From assembly GCA_000165425.1 (NCBI GenBank), contig CT868096.1:702601-766600 (forward strand): 64,000 nucleotides of DNA, given 5' to 3'. Below, piece by piece: positions 1,971 to 12,689 of the stretch. This stretch comes from Paramecium tetraurelia (taxonomy: Eukaryota). The first letter of the stretch is position 1. Every line of letters begins with the position of its first letter. A program made the position numbers and the translations under genes. Under the pieces are notes generated by a model, which did not search any database, had not been told where the DNA came from, and saw nothing but the letters and a program-made list of their open reading frames with translations.

Positions 1971-4000
1971 TCAAATTTCTCTTCCTTATTAAATAACTTC
2001 AATAAGTGTCAATAGATTATTCTTTTTAACAGCATTTCTACACATATTGGTGATGGCAATTTTAGCATTTCCAACTCTCAATTAACTGGCGTTGCTGATC
2101 ATGGCATTAACTTCTTTTAAGTTGTTCATTAAGATATCATTATTTTATTTCTTTTTATAGAGTTCACTCTAAATGGCTTTATTCTGAACCATCACATTAG
2201 CATACATTTTTTGCATAGTCCTAATATCGCCAATCATTCTAGAATCCTCAGCTTTAACAATATAAGATTTAACAAGATTCATGGCTTCAGCAACATCACC
2301 TGAAATTTATAATTTGGAAGATTTATGTTATTGGACAGCCTCAAGTACCTTTTTGAACTCTTGCATTTCAACAGGGAACTATCCGACTGTCATTAAATCT
2401 TGGATTTGGATGAAGTCACAAAGATCTTGAATGATGTCACCACAAGTGGCAATGGAATCACAACGGATAGTTACCTTTCCTTCCTTAGAATCAAACTATT
2501 ATATTGATAATCTAAATTTACGTGAATCTGTAATTTTTATTGATTAATAATATTAATAGTGTTGAATATGAACTCATTTGTAGATTCGAATTTTTTCTTG
2601 ACTTCCTCATTGATATTGAAACACTAGTCTATCCATTTAACATATCTGGGAACTCTTTCATTAATTTTGGCTTCAACAAATGATGATATCTTAAGATCTT
2701 ACTCAACATATTAGAAATTAGCAAACTTAGGAAAGGTGGGAGATGTTTCCAAAATCAAAAAGTAATTTCCATGAGGATTTGATGAAACAAACACTTTACA
2801 GTTTAAAATAACCTTCTAATTATCAACCAATTATTTCAGAGGTGCAAATAATTTATCTGAAGGTTGAGGATTATTAACTATGTATCCTTCCTTATAATAT
2901 GTGTCATGAAATATGATAGCCTAAGTGATATAATATCCAGGTTCTGATAGGATGAATACTAAATTTAAACATTAATTAGTGTAATTTTTCTAAAATCCAC
3001 ATCTTAGATCTAACCCAACAGGCATTTTATCTAATTACATTTATTACATCAATTCTTGTTTTTTTTAGGTTAACTCAGTGAGAATTCTACTTTAAGATAG
3101 ATTCAGATTGTCTGCATCCTTATCTACAACGGTGTATCCTCTGACATTGCCTTATTTGGATATTGCAATAATTTGATTAACTCCAACACCTCTTAGATCA
3201 GAATAAAGCATTCCACTCAATTATTCATCCAAATTTAACTTTTAAATCAATTAACCAGTCATCAAAGACCTTAATTCAATCTATCCATTTCTTCTCCCCA
3301 CAATGAAATGATTTTCATCATTGCAAATGAGTTTGAATATCTTTTCTTAATCTTCACTGTTGTGCCACAATTCCAATTATTATCGATGTAATTTAATAGA
3401 TCCATTTTCCATACCAGTCAGAAGATAAGTTTGATCGAAATAGATAATTCCAGCAAAAGAAACTGGTAAAGATTGAGTATTAAATTGGAATACTATGTCC
3501 ACTCCTCTTAAGAGTCTAACACAATTATCTGTTGTGCCAATAACAATATAATTCTCATTATCGAAACCGAAAACACATAATGCAGCAACCTCATCACTTG
3601 CCACATTCCAATAAATCTCCTCGCCCTATACATTGAATCCTTATAGACTGCAATTACCTCCCACGAATATTAACTCTTAAAGAGAATCGCCATTATAATA
3701 TTACCCAATTGCCAAGGTATTTATCCCATCTTGCACTTCAATAAAGCATTGATCAAAATTGTTCTCAACATCATGAACTGTCAACGTGTTCTCACTTGCC
3801 ATCACGAGACATTGGTTGATCACACCCAATGATTTGAATTCTCTTTTCACATTTAAGAAATTTGATGTATTATTCTGAAATAGTAAAATGCTTCCTATAG
3901 AAGTATATCCAATCAACGAAGTCGAGTCTCCAATTAGCTTACCTGATGTGGCCATTATGATATCATATTTAAGCGAAAAGTTGTAGGATTGGACAATCAT
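1971..4000 (-). CDS. BBS2: Bardet-Biedl syndrome 2 protein (BBSome subunit)
   Basis: IFVGGNCSLQGFNVQGEEIYWNVASDEV in the beta-propeller. C-terminal VTIRVDSIATCGDIIQDL and VKAEDSRMIGD..NASQLRVG are typical of BBS2. One ~26-nt intron near 2497-2522. Confidence 0.92.
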
Positions 4001-4185
4001 TACTCCTTTAGTAATTTATATTTATTGATATTTAATTATATACCCATACTAAACATTCCCTTTTTGTAGATCATATGATTATTATTTTCTATTATATTAC
4101 AAACGAAGAACTCCATCTCCTAATCCTAAGTTCAAACTCACATTTATACATTAATTATTTATACTCCTTGGATATATTAATATTA

Positions 4186-5842
4186 ATGGAAATCAGCAAT
4201 CGCCAAGACATCGAAAAATTGATAGCTTACAGCAAAAGTATTCAAGTTGGTCTCATCGAAGATGTATTTATCTGAGCTATCCCAGGATTTCAATGATCAA
4301 TACACTCCCCCTGAGAAACATGTCTATGAATCAGAAACACTTCCTGACATAAAATTAGAAGAATTCGAACCTAATCTAAATGAAGATGAAATGCTTAAAT
4401 TATTAAAACAGAATGTTCAATCTGCTAAAATGAAAGAAAGTGTGAGCAGTGAACATGATAGTCTCGACAGTTAAGATTCAATTGAAAGGAGATCCACTCC
4501 TCCAAAACGTAAATAATAATGAGTTGATCCTCAAATCCAAATCCAAATCCCTGTCTAGAAAAGCTAAACTACTGTAGACATGACAGAGTACAACAAAGTT
4601 CCTGAAGAAGTCTTGTAATTATTGGACGGAGCAAAAGAACGCAAATCAATGCTGGGTGCAGCCATTAAAAATACTAAAGGAACCAGCATGTTATTGCAAT
4701 CACAGGGAAAGCCTATTAAGATTTACTTTTTTAACACTCAATAACACATTCAACTCAATGTTACCAAAAGTACTACAGTCCTATAAGTTATTAGAATAAG
4801 CATAACTGAATATTATAAAAATAACAATTACGATTAGAGATTATTGAGATATCCTGATAATGTTGATGCTTACGAAATAAGATTTGTTGATGATGACTAT
4901 GAATTCAAAGCAGAAATGGCGTTTGGTGCTATTGATAAAAAAAAAGAAATCCTCTCAACTTAGACGAATGTTTTCTCTCTTATTGAAATAAGTAACTACA
5001 AATCACAAACTAATGATATGCAGATCTTAGAAAAAGTTAATCCAAATATGATCCTTGTTGATGTCTTGATTATTGACTAGAAACCTGAAAAGAATGTCAC
5101 TACAAAAATTTAATTAGATAAAAATTCTATTGTTCAAGATATATTCACTTAGATTAATAAAAAGAATAAATAAGTAAAATCTCATTAACTAACTAATAGA
5201 TCAATCAAATAGATTATATTATTCAATTAAATGATGATGACACTCTTTTAGATCTAGATTTAAGAATGCCAGTAGCTCAATTATAGAATAAAAAAGTTTA
5301 AATAAAATAAAAGACTTGGGCAGATTAGGCAGAACAATAATTCGTTAATAGTTAAAGAAGAGATACTATTACAGAACATGATGATTATGTTGATGCTCCC
5401 TTAAATCATATCCAAGCATTTAAATATGAAAAGTTTACAGTGGTTAAAATCAATGAAAGAGGAAAAAGATAGGATAGAATATTAGGAATTGACCAATTCA
5501 GAATTTATAATATGAACAAAAAGGAAAATTTAGGTATCTTCTCATCTAAGACTAATCTTAGGATTGTTTGAGAGGATTTTAAACAATAAAAACTCAGGTA
5601 CAAAGTTCCCATAGAGATTAATAGAAGATATTGTTGATATTCGGATTGCTCATTAATTTTTATACATTACTTTTAGATAAGAGAGTATTTTAATAATTTA
5701 TTTATTAGATGACTTCAAAGAATTGAAATTTGATACTTTAGATTCTAAAATTGCTTAAAAAATATACAAGAAGATTAATTTTATCCGAGACTTTTAGATA
5801 ACAACTTAAAAATATAGAGCTTCTATTTAAAAATTAGATTGA
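4186..5842 (+). CDS. SIN1: SIN1/Avo1/MAPKAP1-like TORC2 subunit (CRIM region plus C-terminal SIN1-type PH domain); contains an unresolved in-frame TGA at 4520-4522
   Basis: TTVLQVIRISITEY..AYEIRFVDDDYEFKAEMAFGAID (CRIM-like) and FKYEKFTVVKINERGKRQDRILGIDQFRIYN (SIN1 PH-like). Several 22-28 nt introns. Confidence 0.75.
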
Positions 5843-5888
5843 TATATAAAATATGATATATATTAATTTTATTTTTTCCTTGAAGACA

Positions 5889-8800
5889 TCACATCAATCC
5901 AAATCCTTCACAATTTTATAATGCTATTTGCAGTTTCATTATCATTTTATCAATTGAATCATACTATGGCAGTAATAATACATTAAAACAGGTATGAGCT
6001 GATGGCAATTATTCCGAATCTTAAGTAATATAAATCAACTTTACCTTCTCCATGTTTTTAAATTAAGAATTTTAATGATTTTAAACCACCTACAGGAATT
6101 CTATCAGAACCAGTGCAAAAAAACAAAAATCTTTTTTATTATTCTTCATTTAGTGTTCTTAAAAATGTCCAAAATTATCTAAGGTATAAACAATAAAGCT
6201 AACTTTATGTATTCAGAATTGTAATCGAACCCATCATACTCTGTTGAATCCTCTAATTCCTTAAGATTCAAGTTTTTTTATCCAACAATTAATTATTGTA
6301 ATTCGGAGCCTGAAAATAATTTAATTCCATTTCCCTCCACCACTCTCCAAAATCCTTATTTAAAAGAATTAAATGTTGTTTCAATTTACAGATTTAAATA
6401 ATAGTTAGTGCATAATCTTATATATTCATGCTTATTTTATTGTGTTACCATTATTTCAGTTCCATTAGGCTAAATATAAGTATAATAAATTATACAAGTA
6501 ATTCCACATTAATAATGTCATCCCGTATTGTTTCAGTAATAGTAAAATTCAAAGCAAATACATCCTCGATATTATCTTATTCATATTAAGCAAGAGCATT
6601 GAGTCCTTTATAAACTTCGAGATCTAATTCTTTTAAATCTTCAAGACAAGTGGGCTCATTCATCAATTTTTTAAAAATGACTTCTGGAAATTAGAGATCC
6701 AAACACACTAATTTATTTGATTTATACCTTAATTATATAATGCTAATCCTAGAATCATGCCAATCAACTCATATTTAAATGGCATTTCCATATTATTTTT
6801 ATTAAACCATAATATTGAGTTATTATTTTTGGGAACAAACATTCCAAAATTTATATCAAATAACTTTTATGTCAATAAAGAGAAGAATTCTCTTGCTAAC
6901 CCTCCTTAGTCGATACCTTGTTCTCCTTAAAATACAATTTAAAGTTAAGCCTTTAAGTTAATATCCTTTCTTGATAGGGATACTAAAGCACTAGTAACAA
7001 CATCATTACGATCAATCATCAATTATAAAAATGGTTAATAAAACATAAATGAATTTTGAAATTAGCTCTTTTAATTCATTTTAGAATCGATGGCTAGAAT
7101 TTCACTTTTGAATTCCAGAGGTATCACCCATGGATATTGACAAAAAGTAAAATAATATCTTTCTAAGTTTTATATACTATAACTATCGAATTAAATGTAT
7201 TCTAACTAATTACCATATTTTGGATACAATGTAGCAATTTCTGATATTTGAAATCTAGTTAGATTTAATAGTTTAAGAGTTTTATTAGAATTATAAAATA
7301 CCTATAAGAGTTCAAGCATTTGTTTAACAAATTGGATTTCTGTTTTTTTTAATAATGGTATATGTTTCTTTGATTGTTATTTTAAGTAATTTCCCATAAT
7401 TTCAATAATTGTTGAAGTATATCTGATGAAATATTCATCAGGCAATATTTTAAGATAATTTGATAAAAGATCCTTATCTTCTTTACTTAAAATTAGAAAC
7501 ACTTCTATAATTCTATTCCCTTCTTAATATAATAAATTATTGAAGCATTTAAAATGCATAATAATAATAATAGCTCTTACAAAATATATACTTTATTTGT
7601 AATTTGAAACCAAATTTTCCATCCATAGTTTAAGAGTTTTTGCATCTAATACATCATTCACCAATTAAATAGCTGATAAATTCAATTCAGGATTTGAATT
7701 TTTATAATTAATAACATCATAGCAATTATTAAAATTTAGAATAAAAGATGCTCCAAAACTATTTGGAAAAATGGACAACTCAGTTAAAGCAACAACTATA
7801 TTATCATTATCCTGTAATTATTGAATAGGTTTTAATTCATTAATCTAATTCCAACATACAGTTGTCCAATCTAAGTAATCCTACTTAAACTATTCAATTA
7901 AATAGTATTATAGAGTTTTCCTATCAAATTCAATTTAGGAAAATATCGGATTACTTTTGCAATAATTCCTATCACAAATAAATTTACCACATCCTTTTGA
8001 TGCTTTCTAGTAAATGTGTCTAAAATCCTCAGAACAAGAAATCTAAAATTTTCATGAATAATACTTTGATATCCAATTAATCATATTGCCATTTTCCATC
8101 TATTTAGATATCAATAATTATTAAATCTGCATTATAAGATCCAATAGTAAGATTTTCATTTAAAATTTCTCCATTGAAATGTCCCTAATGCTTCTCCAAC
8201 TATTTAATAGCATAATCAGCTTAAAAATGCTTATGTTTCCATAATCTAATCTATTCAACATTGACTTAAAATTCATTTTTAATTGCCAAGCACAATAGTT
8301 ATATCCATTATTTTATAATGCAATCTTAATCTACCTATAGAACTCCTCTTTGTGGGTTTAGTACATTAATATATACAGATTACTAATTTAATTATTAGTG
8401 TTACTCTTAATAAATTTACATTTAAAGAAGGAACACCTTGTTAATTGAAATATACATTTCTTGGTATAGTCATCCCAACACCATATTCAGTTCCCCAGAC
8501 ATCAATCATTAGTTTATTTACCTGAGATAATATTTATAATATCCTACCAAAATAAAATCTTCAGACTATAATTTTATAATTTATTAATTGAAGGAATTAT
8601 CTCTAGGGTATTTTAATAGAAAATTCTCTTTACTACACAAGTCGCAATTCAATGCTCCAGGCTAATTCATGAAATATCTTATACCTTCTCTCTCTTCTCG
8701 TTTGGCGCAATCCCTTATATATACTCAACGTAGTATTACCATTAGCGAAACCACTATTTGGAAACAACATATAATTGCTTACTACTATCCTTAATTGTTT

Positions 8801-8897
8801 TCAAACTCTAAGATGATATCAATATTACCTTACTTGTTTAATAATATAGAATTATTTCCTTTTAAAAAGGAGTTATCTCTTGCCTGATTTTATTCAT
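5889..8897 (-). CDS. HECT E3 ubiquitin ligase (UBE3A/E6AP-like) with N-terminal DUSP, UBL and AZUL-like domains
   Basis: HECT: FQGEQGIDQGGLAREFF, FCTGSDRIPVGGL, LPSAHTCFNVLLLP..CEGFGLM-stop. AZUL-like GCGKFICDRNYCKSNP. DUSP-like YVVSKQWFRQWQYYV..PGAL..EDFILV..YGVGMTIPR. I traced the frame continuously from the ATG into the HECT domain across short GT-AG introns. Confidence 0.88.
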
Positions 8898-8933
8898 TTT
8901 TGTATGTAGGTATTTTTATAATATGAATAATTA

Positions 8934-9906
8934 TCATTAAATTTTCTTTTTCTAAATCTCATCAAAACCATTAATCATATTATCTTAAAATTCATGCCTA
9001 AATGTTAATTCGCATGCCTTGAGAGGCTACCTTAAATTTTAATTAAAAATTTCAAGTAAATGTTAGGCCAATTCTTTTCTTAAGATTTTTTGCTATTCCC
9101 AAGTTTGATATTAGTTTTTAATTTTATTCAATTATTCAATGATTCTTTTGGCAATACCTATTGATTAATTTTGTTTTACTCTATAAATGAAATTTTATTT
9201 CCTATTCCTTCTCACTTTTCATCTATAACTCAAGTAAATCTAAATTAGAATTGAAAATTACCATAGTCTTGCTTTCTTTTTTCCAATGCCCCTTACAAAT
9301 CCTACACTGACTGTTTTAATTCTTAAATTTGGCTCTCTTAAACCTAAAATTTACTCCTCTATTATTCTATTATCTCTTATTAACTTTTCTTCAAATCCTA
9401 TTTTAGTAATATACATTTATACATGTAATTAATCTCTTTCTTCTTAAAGTTTTTCTATTTATTATTATTAATTCTGTAATTACTCCAAAAATTAGACATT
9501 TTCATTATTTATTTCTGATGTTTCCTTTTTTCTTTAAATAAGTTAATCAATTTAGTTTTGCAGGGATTTAATTTAATCTTTCTAATCGCTTTATAACTAT
9601 TAATCTTTTAAGAGATATTGGGATTATTTTTAAAGCAATTCTTCAGACTTTTACTCTTTTATATAAGTGTATTAATACAGTATAGTTAAAAGTCTTTGAA
9701 AAGTTACTGATAGTTAGCTTTTGTCTCATTTAATTCAGATTATAAAAAGGAAATTGTATTCATTAATTCCTAATTACATCAAAGATGATATGTTATATTA
9801 CCTAATCTTTTTAATTGGGTATTATGGAAGAACTGCTATTTTTACCATTAAAAATTGAGAAGTCCTGTGATTTTTCTATTATAAAAATGACATCTTTGGA
9901 ATCCAT
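8934..9906 (-). CDS. Hypothetical Q/E/K-rich coiled-coil protein
   Basis: ATG 9906, short GTA..TAG introns, coiled-coil-like composition, TGA 8934-8936; no family motif recognised. Confidence 0.6.
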
Positions 9907-10698: not shown

Positions 10699-12689
10699 TC
10701 ATTTCTGTATTTAATAATTCTAAACCAACTCATCCTAAGGTTCTGATTGTGACACATCTGTCTATTTTTTAGGGTGTATCTTTGAAACTATGTATTCAAT
10801 CAATAATGCCATAGTAACATTAAGAGTAAATAATACAACAACTATATAAAAACTAATAAAAAATATGTAAACTAAATCAGTATTAAATATTTTGGCATAA
10901 TTATAAGAAATTACATTCCAATTATTAATAATCAATAAAAACCAACATGTGCACATTCCAGATAAAAAATCGTTAAAGTTTGCTAATTCATAATGAACTT
11001 CATCCTCATCAGAATATAGGACTTTTCCTCCAAAAAGTAATTGTCCAAGGGCTGTATATAGCATAAATAGGATAAATAAAGTTCCAAACAATTACACTAT
11101 ATACTAAAAGATCGATGTTATTGAAATTATTAAATTGGTAAAACTATTACTCTTTAAAATCCATTTACATCCTCTCAATAATCTATAACATAATAAAATC
11201 AGTAACGCTCTGAATTAATTATATCCAAGTATGTTTAATATAATTAACAGAAGAATTGAAATTGAAAATAGAAATTCAACAATTAACGATTTCTTCTTCC
11301 AAATCCTACTTTTACCTACATAACATAATAGTAAGAGGCATTCCGCAAACATTATTGAATTGCAAACCAAAAGTATATATAATTTGACGTTAGTAATTTT
11401 GAAAAATATCACCACAAATGAAATTAAGGAAATGATTTCAATAAAAATTTCATAAAATTTATTATCTAAAATTTTGTATATCGATCTGGATATTACATTG
11501 TCATATTATGAAATGTCTGCTAATCTTGTGATATCAGACTCTGTTCTCTTTCGAAAAAATTTCTATGTTTAAAGACTAAATCTGTGATTGTACTTGGATA
11601 AAATTTACTTTGTTTCTTTTTGCATCAGATCTTTGTAAGATGAATAAAAGAAGGCCAACACTAAATTTATGATCAATGTAGTGTTTATGAATTAAAATAT
11701 GATAAAATATGCCACATTAGCCCTAGACTAACCATAATATGGTAAATAGATATCAGGCTAATTAACTGTTGTTTGAAGTACAAATAGAATAATTACAATG
11801 CATTTTTCTGGTTATGAAAAGGGAGGCTAATCTAATTAACATATACTGCTTTCAATTTGAGGGGTATTCTTATTCTTAAATATGGCTGATCCTAACCCAG
11901 TAAAAAATATTAGAGAAAATATCATCAAATAATAGATCTCTTTTCCTTTGTTAAGTATTTAACAATAATGAAATATCGTGGAACGTAATGTTTATCTATC
12001 TCTATAGTGATTATTAGATACTTTTAAAGTATTATAAATATTGATTTCATTAATAAACTGATATTGAAGGGAAAGTTATTTTCTAGTATCATTACTGTGA
12101 TGTCATTAAAAATGATCAACAACATAATCATGAATTAAACCATTGCGATTCTTTTGCGATGTCGTGACTAGATTATTGTGGCTTTGAACACCTAAATATA
12201 ATCTCTTACAATACTTTGCTCAAACAAAGATATAAAACGATCATTATTTCAATGCAATAATATAAGTTTACGGGAAGATAAAAATCTACTATTTTTGGAA
12301 TCCTTTATCCATTATATATGCTGCAGTATTCCTAAAATATCATAGCTTTTACTTAATAGTCAACAAAATTGCACCAAGTCGGACGCTAAAAGACTGTAAT
12401 TATTAAATATATGTAAAAAAAAACAGTTCTTATAATTTTGTGGTTTTTGTAATTTTTCATCAGCCTCACAGATTTAGAGTTTTGCATATACGAGGCCCTA
12501 TCTTATAATTTAGTATAAATGTACTTTCTATACGATTACTAAGCCGATTTAATGCATAGAACGAAGCAAAGTTATTTGAATCATTAGATTGATCAATATA
12601 ATGGAGATCCAGAACCTTACTTGTATTTAAATATGATTCTTTGATCTCATCGAGAGATTTAGCATAATCCTAAGACTTTAATGCATCAT
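10699..12689 (-). CDS. Two-pore channel (TPC family cation channel)
   Basis: Two pore modules: LFVLQTTVNQPDIYLPYY..YFIIF..INLVLAFFY and ANFNDFLSGMCTCWFLLIINNWNVI..FFISFYIVVVLFTLNV. Confidence 0.82.

Follow-up and report, generated by a model that had tools for sequence, protein, structure and literature searches.

The question raised by this locus is which kind of ubiquitin enzyme is encoded by a spliced gene on the minus strand (5889..8897) of a 64,000-nucleotide (nt) stretch of Paramecium tetraurelia contig CT868096.1 (positions 702,601 to 766,600; the whole stretch is called the window below). In an earlier reading made from the letters of this DNA (the sequence-only reading), a DUSP-UBL module of the kind known from the deubiquitinases USP4, USP11 and USP15 was proposed to be fused to an AZUL-HECT ubiquitin ligase of the UBE3A/E6AP type. 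The product of the gene, the public Paramecium tetraurelia protein P0001 of 939 amino acids (aa), was found here to be a UBE3A-family ligase that is ordinary apart from its head, which is unusual and restricted to the genus. Its architecture and family assignment are very probably those of a UBE3A/E6AP-family HECT ligase to which a DUSP-UBL tandem has been added N-terminally. In the proposed mechanism, the HECT domain would take ubiquitin from an E2 onto Cys907 and hand it on to substrates, and the DUSP-UBL head would be the docking site for substrates or adaptor proteins. A probability of about 0.8 was given to this explanation as a whole, fusion and docking mechanism together.

The HECT ligase body

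The C-terminal part of P0001 was matched by the Pfam HECT profile at 310 bits (E 2.9e-92), covering profile positions 2-305 of 306. Cys907 in the motif SAHTCFN aligns with the HTCFN of UBE3A/E6AP, and Phe936 is located four residues from the C-terminus. Judged from its sequence, the protein therefore has the domain set of a working HECT ligase, that is, the catalytic Cys, the Phe near the C-terminus and full profile coverage. The intact HECT domain of the sequence-only reading, with its catalytic Cys in SAHTCFN, was thereby recovered. No UCH domain was found by Pfam in P0001 or in the scanned relatives, and P0001 is a ligase, not a USP.

Three results confirmed the assignment to the UBE3A type, which is also part of the sequence-only reading: the HECT score, the presence of the helical domain specific to E6AP, and the HECT tree described below. 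In the comparison with all solved chains, human UBE3A scored 285.7 bits over residues 552-939, against 195.8 bits for the next HECT protein (pub2/Rsp5) and no more than that for the others. The helical domain of E6AP type is present between the AZUL motif and the HECT domain. In the structure models, which covered residues 1-358 and exon 5, the structural alignment of other HECT ligases (not UBE3A/E6AP) was limited to the N-lobe part of the model.

The DUSP-UBL head

The DUSP segment was recognized directly by Pfam (PF06337) at 50.2 bits against a cut-off of 29.3 (E 3.7e-13, profile positions 2-76 of 77), and it has the predicted fold, the conserved Trp and the PG(P)I motif that mark the family. 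A UBL of beta-grasp fold follows immediately after the DUSP domain, and the two superpose as a tandem on DUSP-UBL of the USP4/USP11/USP15 type. The AlphaFold2 model of residues 1-358 had a mean predicted local distance difference test score (pLDDT) of 79.5, with 85-95 in the DUSP and UBL domains. In the Foldseek search with this part of the protein, all listed matches at E < 1e-5 (13 rows, ranks 1-15) were USP11/USP4/USP15 DUSP-UBL structures, with E 2.8e-9 to 4e-6 over 224-262 columns.

At the sequence level, profiles were needed to see this relationship. A single-sequence search with residues 1-254 against solved structures gave a chance match alone (E 1.2), and a language-model search with residues 1-260 gave no usable match. 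A profile built from four Paramecium N-termini (A2) matched the solved USP4 DUSP-UBL chains at E 0.0045-0.007. Searched against 1.84 billion representatives, the same profile gave 38 matches, and 32 of the 37 that were scanned by Pfam have a DUSP domain; four also have a USP catalytic domain, with matches reaching through the UBL region, and Ubiquitin_3 was found in one of the matches (P0043, an aligned USP-type relative). The alignment of A2 to six USP-type sequences by hhalign reached 99.2% (E 9.9e-20) over 233 columns, which correspond to P0001 residues 13-249. These six sequences were chosen for matching A2, and the independent part of the result is their own domain content (two with UCH, one with Pfam Ubiquitin_3). 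A deeper profile (A4) matched the DUSP-UBL of USP4/USP15/USP11 at E 5e-22 to 1e-14; it consists mostly of non-Paramecium DUSP fragments and was not counted as independent support.

By homology and predicted fold, the DUSP-UBL tandem of P0001 is thus taken as established. The claims of the sequence-only reading about the head held, namely the DUSP segment through its Pfam score, the UBL through profile and predicted-fold evidence instead of a Pfam match, and the USP4/USP11/USP15 kind of the pair through the hhalign and Foldseek matches. The junction between the head and the AZUL-HECT body was observed to coincide with the intron at 8064-8043, exon 4 encoding residues 149-254. This intron may mark the fusion point, or the coincidence may be due to chance.

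The AZUL-like motif

A putative zinc motif of four Cys residues follows the UBL. These residues (C272, C277, C282 and C317) are invariant in the alignment of 11/11 Paramecium relatives. When the alignment was made with Pfam-certified AZUL proteins, the four columns held Cys in 44, 40, 46 and 46 of 52 rows, and the CCCC pattern was present in 15/15 Paramecium rows and in 13/16 of the Pfam-certified AZUL rows. The N-terminal profile matched the solved UBE3A AZUL structures at a marginal E of 0.0011-0.0015, and hhalign against twelve Pfam-certified AZUL-HECT proteins gave 78% (E 1.8e-5) with all four Cys aligned. In three paralogs, Pfam AZUL matches were obtained below the threshold (12.5, 13.0 and 19.4 bits versus a cut-off of 23.8). 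The sequence evidence therefore supports the AZUL identity of the motif at a marginal level. It was also considered that the Cys-rich stretch could derive from the MYND finger of a USP donor. This was rejected because the stretch matches AZUL profiles and the E6AP helical domain comes next.

Gene model and expression

The longest exon retrieved P0001 at 100% identity in a protein database search, and the spliced translation of 8897..5889 is the same as P0001 letter for letter. The single spliced frame from the ATG at 8897 was thereby verified, and all peptide strings cited in the sequence-only reading were found in P0001. The coding sequence ends with the TGA at 5891-5889, TAA and TAG being read as Gln, and its introns are 23, 26, 22, 22, 20, 26, 25 and 25 nt long in order. 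The window, AT-rich with a G+C content of 27%, reads like nuclear DNA of a ciliate: TAA/TAG encode Gln, and the introns measure 20-26 nt. The coordinates of all features are listed in Table 1. Upstream of the gene, an open frame on the minus strand (8934-9218) ends at a TGA (8936-8934) that is in frame with the ligase ATG, and the spacer between this TGA and the ATG is very short (36 nt).

Three runs of poly-A (oligo-dT) RNA reads contributed 79 reads of 58 nt each to this locus (36, 31 and 12), spread over 5800-8902, and no reads were found in 8903-9000. The first mate was on the plus strand in all of them, and this single orientation fits a minus-strand transcript. The DUSP end and the HECT end were both covered, at similar low depth. 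No splice joint in the ligase gene was seen at the reporting threshold, so we infer a single, expressed, low-abundance transcript from these reads and do not regard it as directly demonstrated. With regard to the expected transcript across 8897-5889, the one-orientation reads at both ends agree with the sequence-only reading, but a joint at threshold was not obtained.

One correction to the annotated protein is probably needed. The seven residues VILISSQ (residues 24-30) are found in P0001 only and are missing from 10/10 aligned relatives, and their boundaries are exactly those of a GTA..TAG candidate intron (8808..8828), which has a length divisible by three and no stop codon. The pLDDT was below 50 at residues 30-32 of the AlphaFold2 model. 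No confirming read joint was seen for this intron at threshold in the three RNA runs. The segment is probably a ninth, unannotated intron.

Table 1 Coordinates of the ligase gene, its domains and its neighbours in the window
Feature	Position	Strand	Residues	Remark
Whole ligase gene	5889..8897	minus	939 aa	9 exons, 8 introns; ciliate code
Exons	8897-8685, 8661-8548, 8521-8405, 8382-8065, 8042-6728, 6707-6496, 6469-6204, 6178-6045, 6019-5889	minus		stop TGA included
Introns	8684-8662, 8547-8522, 8404-8383, 8064-8043, 6727-6708, 6495-6470, 6203-6179, 6044-6020	minus		all GT..AG
N-terminal helix and DUSP	8438..8873	minus	~9-137	exons 1-3; Pfam match to residues 40-133 (8780-8450)
UBL (predicted beta-grasp)	8083..8419	minus	~144-248	nearly exon 4 (8382-8065)
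AZUL-like Cys4 motif (putative)	7845..8033	minus	~258-320	
AZUL-like Cys codons	7991-7989; 7976-7974; 7961-7959; 7856-7854	minus	C272; C277; C282; C317	
Helical middle region	6879..7844	minus	~321-642	E6AP N-terminal-domain type
HECT domain	5892..6878	minus	643-938	Pfam match 6878-5895
Catalytic Cys	5990-5988	minus	Cys907	in SAHTCFN
Candidate unannotated intron	8808..8828	minus	24-30	21 nt, in frame, GTA...TAG; encodes VILISSQ
Purple-acid-phosphatase-like metallophosphatase	560-1885	plus		Pfam domain of open frame
BBSome subunit BBS2	2393-4192	minus		Pfam domain of open frame
Sin1 (CRIM domain)	4523-5512	plus		Pfam domain of open frame
Ion-transport protein	10702-12102	minus		Pfam domain of open frame

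The genes adjoining the ligase (Sin1 CRIM, BBS2, phosphatase-like and ion-transport) have no relation to it.

Distribution and origin of the fusion

Relatives of the ligase body were searched with residues 255-939 among word-index candidates. The best 120 of 229 relatives, 516-1644 aa in length, were considered, and their domain pairs were read from precomputed Pfam columns. Paramecium accounts for 17 of these rows, contributed by several aurelia species and P. bursaria. DUSP (PF06337) and HECT (PF00632) occur together in 16 rows, all of them from Paramecium, and the 17th Paramecium row (P0008) has an N-terminus that is shortened in the annotation. No DUSP was found in the non-Paramecium rows among the best 120. 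After the Paramecium rows, the best matches came from AZUL-HECT proteins of Physarum, dictyostelids, Chrysochromulina and animals, together with diatom proteins of RCC1-HECT type. In the precomputed Pfam column, a DUSP-UBL was absent from all 17 AZUL-HECT proteins listed. Likewise, the 38 matches of the N-terminal profile A2 include only two full-length DUSP-HECT proteins, both from Paramecium. As far as sequences go, the N-terminal fusion in P0001 is thus restricted to one genus: a UBE3A-family ligase with such a head was seen here in Paramecium only.

A quick maximum-likelihood tree (LG+G4) was calculated for 121 HECT domains. The 17 Paramecium rows formed one clade with a Shimodaira-Hasegawa-like approximate likelihood ratio test (SH-aLRT) support of 100, nested in a clade (starred in the tree, SH-aLRT 95) that contains all 17 AZUL-HECT rows. 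P0001 was placed apart from the large RCC1-HECT clade, which holds 46/50 RCC1-HECT rows. The nearest neighbours of the Paramecium clade (support 94) are mostly proteins of 700-740 aa. Pfam found DUSP in 0/17 scanned proteins from the nearest clades on the tree and a weak AZUL signal at the very N-terminus in 3/17. In most of the neighbours (P0072, P0093, P0117, P0120, P0128, P0141, P0142, P0157 and others) a Cys4 motif was observed at the very N-terminus.

This pattern, as read from the sequences, is consistent with a single acquisition of about 250 N-terminal residues in the Paramecium lineage. On one reading, DUSP-UBL was added once before the split of P. bursaria and the aurelia species and was kept through later duplications; the tree fits a single early gain, and so does the fact that the module has been retained as a whole. 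At least five paralogs were counted in P. tetraurelia (P0001, P0003, P0008, P0050 and P0055; protein databases only). The identities between paralogs are 22-74% in the DUSP and 30-80% in the UBL, similar to those in the AZUL and middle region. The public N-termini of two paralogs look mis-annotated. That of P0008 starts inside the DUSP domain, and that of P0050 has, after the DUSP start, a stretch common to no relative, as if an intron or a frame had been missed. A 79-aa fragment, P0017, has the end of the UBL (..NGDWQF..) and an AZUL-like CxxxxCxxxxC in one open frame. The fused UBL-AZUL order is present also in the source organism of this fragment.

Outside the ligases, the Paramecium N-terminal profile was matched best by P0015 (E 1.6e-12 over DUSP and UBL) and P0022 (E 7e-8). 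A ciliate USP is the likely donor of the module, because the order DUSP-UBL-MYND-UCH of these best non-ligase matches includes a protein of the ciliate Nyctotherus.

Role of the head and alternative explanations

A docking role of the DUSP-UBL head was proposed because the N-terminal domains of HECT ligases generally set their targets and because partners of DUSP-UBL are known in USP4/USP11/USP15. In the available text of a 2013 HECT survey, the choice of substrates by HECT ligases is ascribed to the shuffling of their N-terminal domains (PMC3673628). The DUSP-UBL partners named in the available parts of three further sources are SART3, BRAP and short peptide motifs (PMC7935551, PMC5372499, bioRxiv 10.1101/2025.09.22.676098). 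On these analogies, the chances that the head serves in docking may be put as even. It is plausible by analogy that the ligase targets clients of deubiquitinases, as the sequence-only reading had suggested. A broader idea would be that DUSP-UBL is a portable docking module on both sides of the ubiquitin cycle, with adaptors or clients common to the Paramecium DUSP-UBL deubiquitinases and ligases; we consider this unlikely. If it were true, one address code would govern both the addition and the removal of ubiquitin for a common set of proteins, and the role of DUSP-UBL would be independent of deubiquitinase chemistry.

Several points weigh against the explanation of P0001 as an AZUL-HECT ligase with an added docking head. 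Pfam found no match for AZUL in P0001, so the AZUL segment of the sequence-only reading stood only with its Cys4 spacing and marginal profile matches. The assignment was made at the sequence level; the cryo-electron microscopy chains of E6AP begin after AZUL. Likewise, no match to Pfam Ubiquitin_3 (PF14836) was found at E up to 1 in five scanned Paramecium proteins. The exon 4-5 junction has no spanning read at the reporting threshold among the 79 short reads of the three runs. The HECT tree came from a quick LG+G4 search with long-branch warnings, and the restriction to Paramecium is seen within the best 120 of 229 rows, with their length range of 516-1644 aa and their word-index origin. The docking role is drawn by analogy with other systems, and the main role reported for the USP4 DUSP-UBL in the available text of PMC7935551 is acceleration of its own catalytic domain and not substrate binding.

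The last point leads to the alternative that the head acts in cis, docking on its own HECT or helical domain to tune catalysis (autoinhibition or faster ubiquitin hand-over) with no recruitment of clients. The USP4 DUSP-UBL is described, in the portions of text available, as stimulating ubiquitin exchange and thereby activating the catalytic domain of the same protein (PMC7935551, bioRxiv 10.1101/2025.09.22.676098). Moreover, the modelled UBL of P0001 superposes on ubiquitin and on HECT-binding ubiquitin variants (8j0a, 5hpl_C, 6ml1_C), which would indicate a ubiquitin-like shape only. However, the effect in USP4 needs a USP-specific insert and linker contacts, according to the same available text, and these are absent in P0001. 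Control in cis was judged rather unlikely. Another alternative takes the UBL, with or without AZUL, as an address for the proteasome or a shuttle factor, which would park the ligase on the proteasome like the UBLs of other ubiquitin-system enzymes. It has been reported that human E6AP is found on the proteasome through AZUL bound to Rpn10 (PMC7064531, available part), and the proteasome subunit S9 is tabulated as a partner of USP4 UBL1 (PMC7935551, available part). In another language-model search the nearest clusters were plant UPL5-like UBL-HECT ligases (score 0.94), which serves as a lead only. On the other side, the UBL of P0001 belongs to the DUSP-linked type, and 16/17 Paramecium rows have retained the two domains together (the 17th being N-terminally shortened; best 120 of 229 relatives), and a bare proteasome tag would need no DUSP. 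A proteasome address is thus a quite unlikely explanation of the head.

The possibility that the fusion is an annotation artefact, with neighbouring DUSP-UBL and AZUL-HECT genes joined by gene prediction, has in its favour that no RNA read joint spans 8064-8043 at the reporting threshold and that the full-length evidence all comes from predicted proteins. Against this, the intron that separates exons 4 and 5 is a typical one (22 nt, GTA..TAG) across which the frame is preserved, and neither a stop nor a new start intervenes. For each of the 17 Paramecium proteins, P. bursaria included, the prediction gives this fused arrangement. In P0017 a single uninterrupted reading frame holds the AZUL motif and the last part of the UBL, and both halves of the gene are covered by one-orientation reads at similar low depth. 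An artefact was therefore considered extremely improbable, and the reading of P0001 as one fused ligase was retained.

Significance

No description of a fused DUSP-HECT protein was found in the literature (titles and abstract openings). There is no mention of DUSP or Paramecium in the main text of the 2013 HECT survey, in its available part (PMC3673628). The remark of the sequence-only reading that no protein of DUSP-UBL-AZUL-HECT architecture was known to have been described fits this search, but the DUSP and HECT pair has already been attached automatically to Paramecium proteins in public databases (precomputed Pfam). In the survey the range of the E6AP family is given as opisthokonts (PMC3673628, available part), and the present result extends the UBE3A family to ciliates. 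Pfam AZUL together with HECT was also observed in P0058, P0099, P0109, P0134 and P0156 (Physarum, dictyostelids and the haptophyte Chrysochromulina). The arrangement of AZUL, helical domain and HECT, with Pfam-annotated relatives in Amoebozoa and a haptophyte, is thus wider than the opisthokont range in the available part of that survey.

That DUSP occurs, together with its UBL, on a ubiquitin ligase, an enzyme of opposite action, implies that the module can work outside a deubiquitinase core, and the Paramecium ligase is a natural test case for the role of DUSP-UBL. Should the head bind the partners of the cell's DUSP-UBL deubiquitinases, the module would serve as an address for clients or adaptors; should it tune the HECT domain, the role in ubiquitin exchange that has been described for USP4 would be more general. 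The practical weight of the finding is modest, as it concerns one genus and adds one more case to the known shuffling of HECT N-terminal domains.

Comparison with known systems

The head of P0001 is comparable to the DUSP-UBL of USP4/USP11/USP15 (PDB 3jyu, 5ctr, 4a3p, 3t9l, 4mem, 5ok6). In these proteins the UCH catalytic domain follows, whereas in P0001 a ligase follows. The sequence identity between the two is only 15-21%, and P0001 differs in giving no Pfam Ubiquitin_3 match. The DUSP-UBL-zf-MYND-UCH proteins, of which P0022 is from Nyctotherus ovalis and P0015 is alike, have a Cys-rich finger after the UBL at the same point as P0001, but their finger is of MYND type and belongs to a deubiquitinase. 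For P0015, which is a fragment, the finger was read from sequence, not from a Pfam match.

Plant UPL5 is, like P0001, a HECT ligase with an N-terminal ubiquitin-like domain. However, it has neither DUSP nor AZUL, and it is put in a HECT class other than that of E6AP in the available text of the 2013 survey (PMC3673628). The ubiquitin domain PF00240 was not matched by Pfam in P0001. The closest known system is that of human UBE3A/E6AP and its AZUL-HECT relatives in animals, Amoebozoa and a haptophyte, which share with P0001 the complete HECT domain, the HTCFN Cys and the helical domain. The GCGxxxCxxxxC...C motif of P0001 stands at the same place as AZUL in UBE3A/E6AP; unlike in the Pfam-certified AZUL-HECT proteins, it is too divergent for the Pfam cut-off. 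Compared with these AZUL-HECT relatives, P0001 has about 250 extra residues at its N-terminus, and these residues are the DUSP-UBL head.

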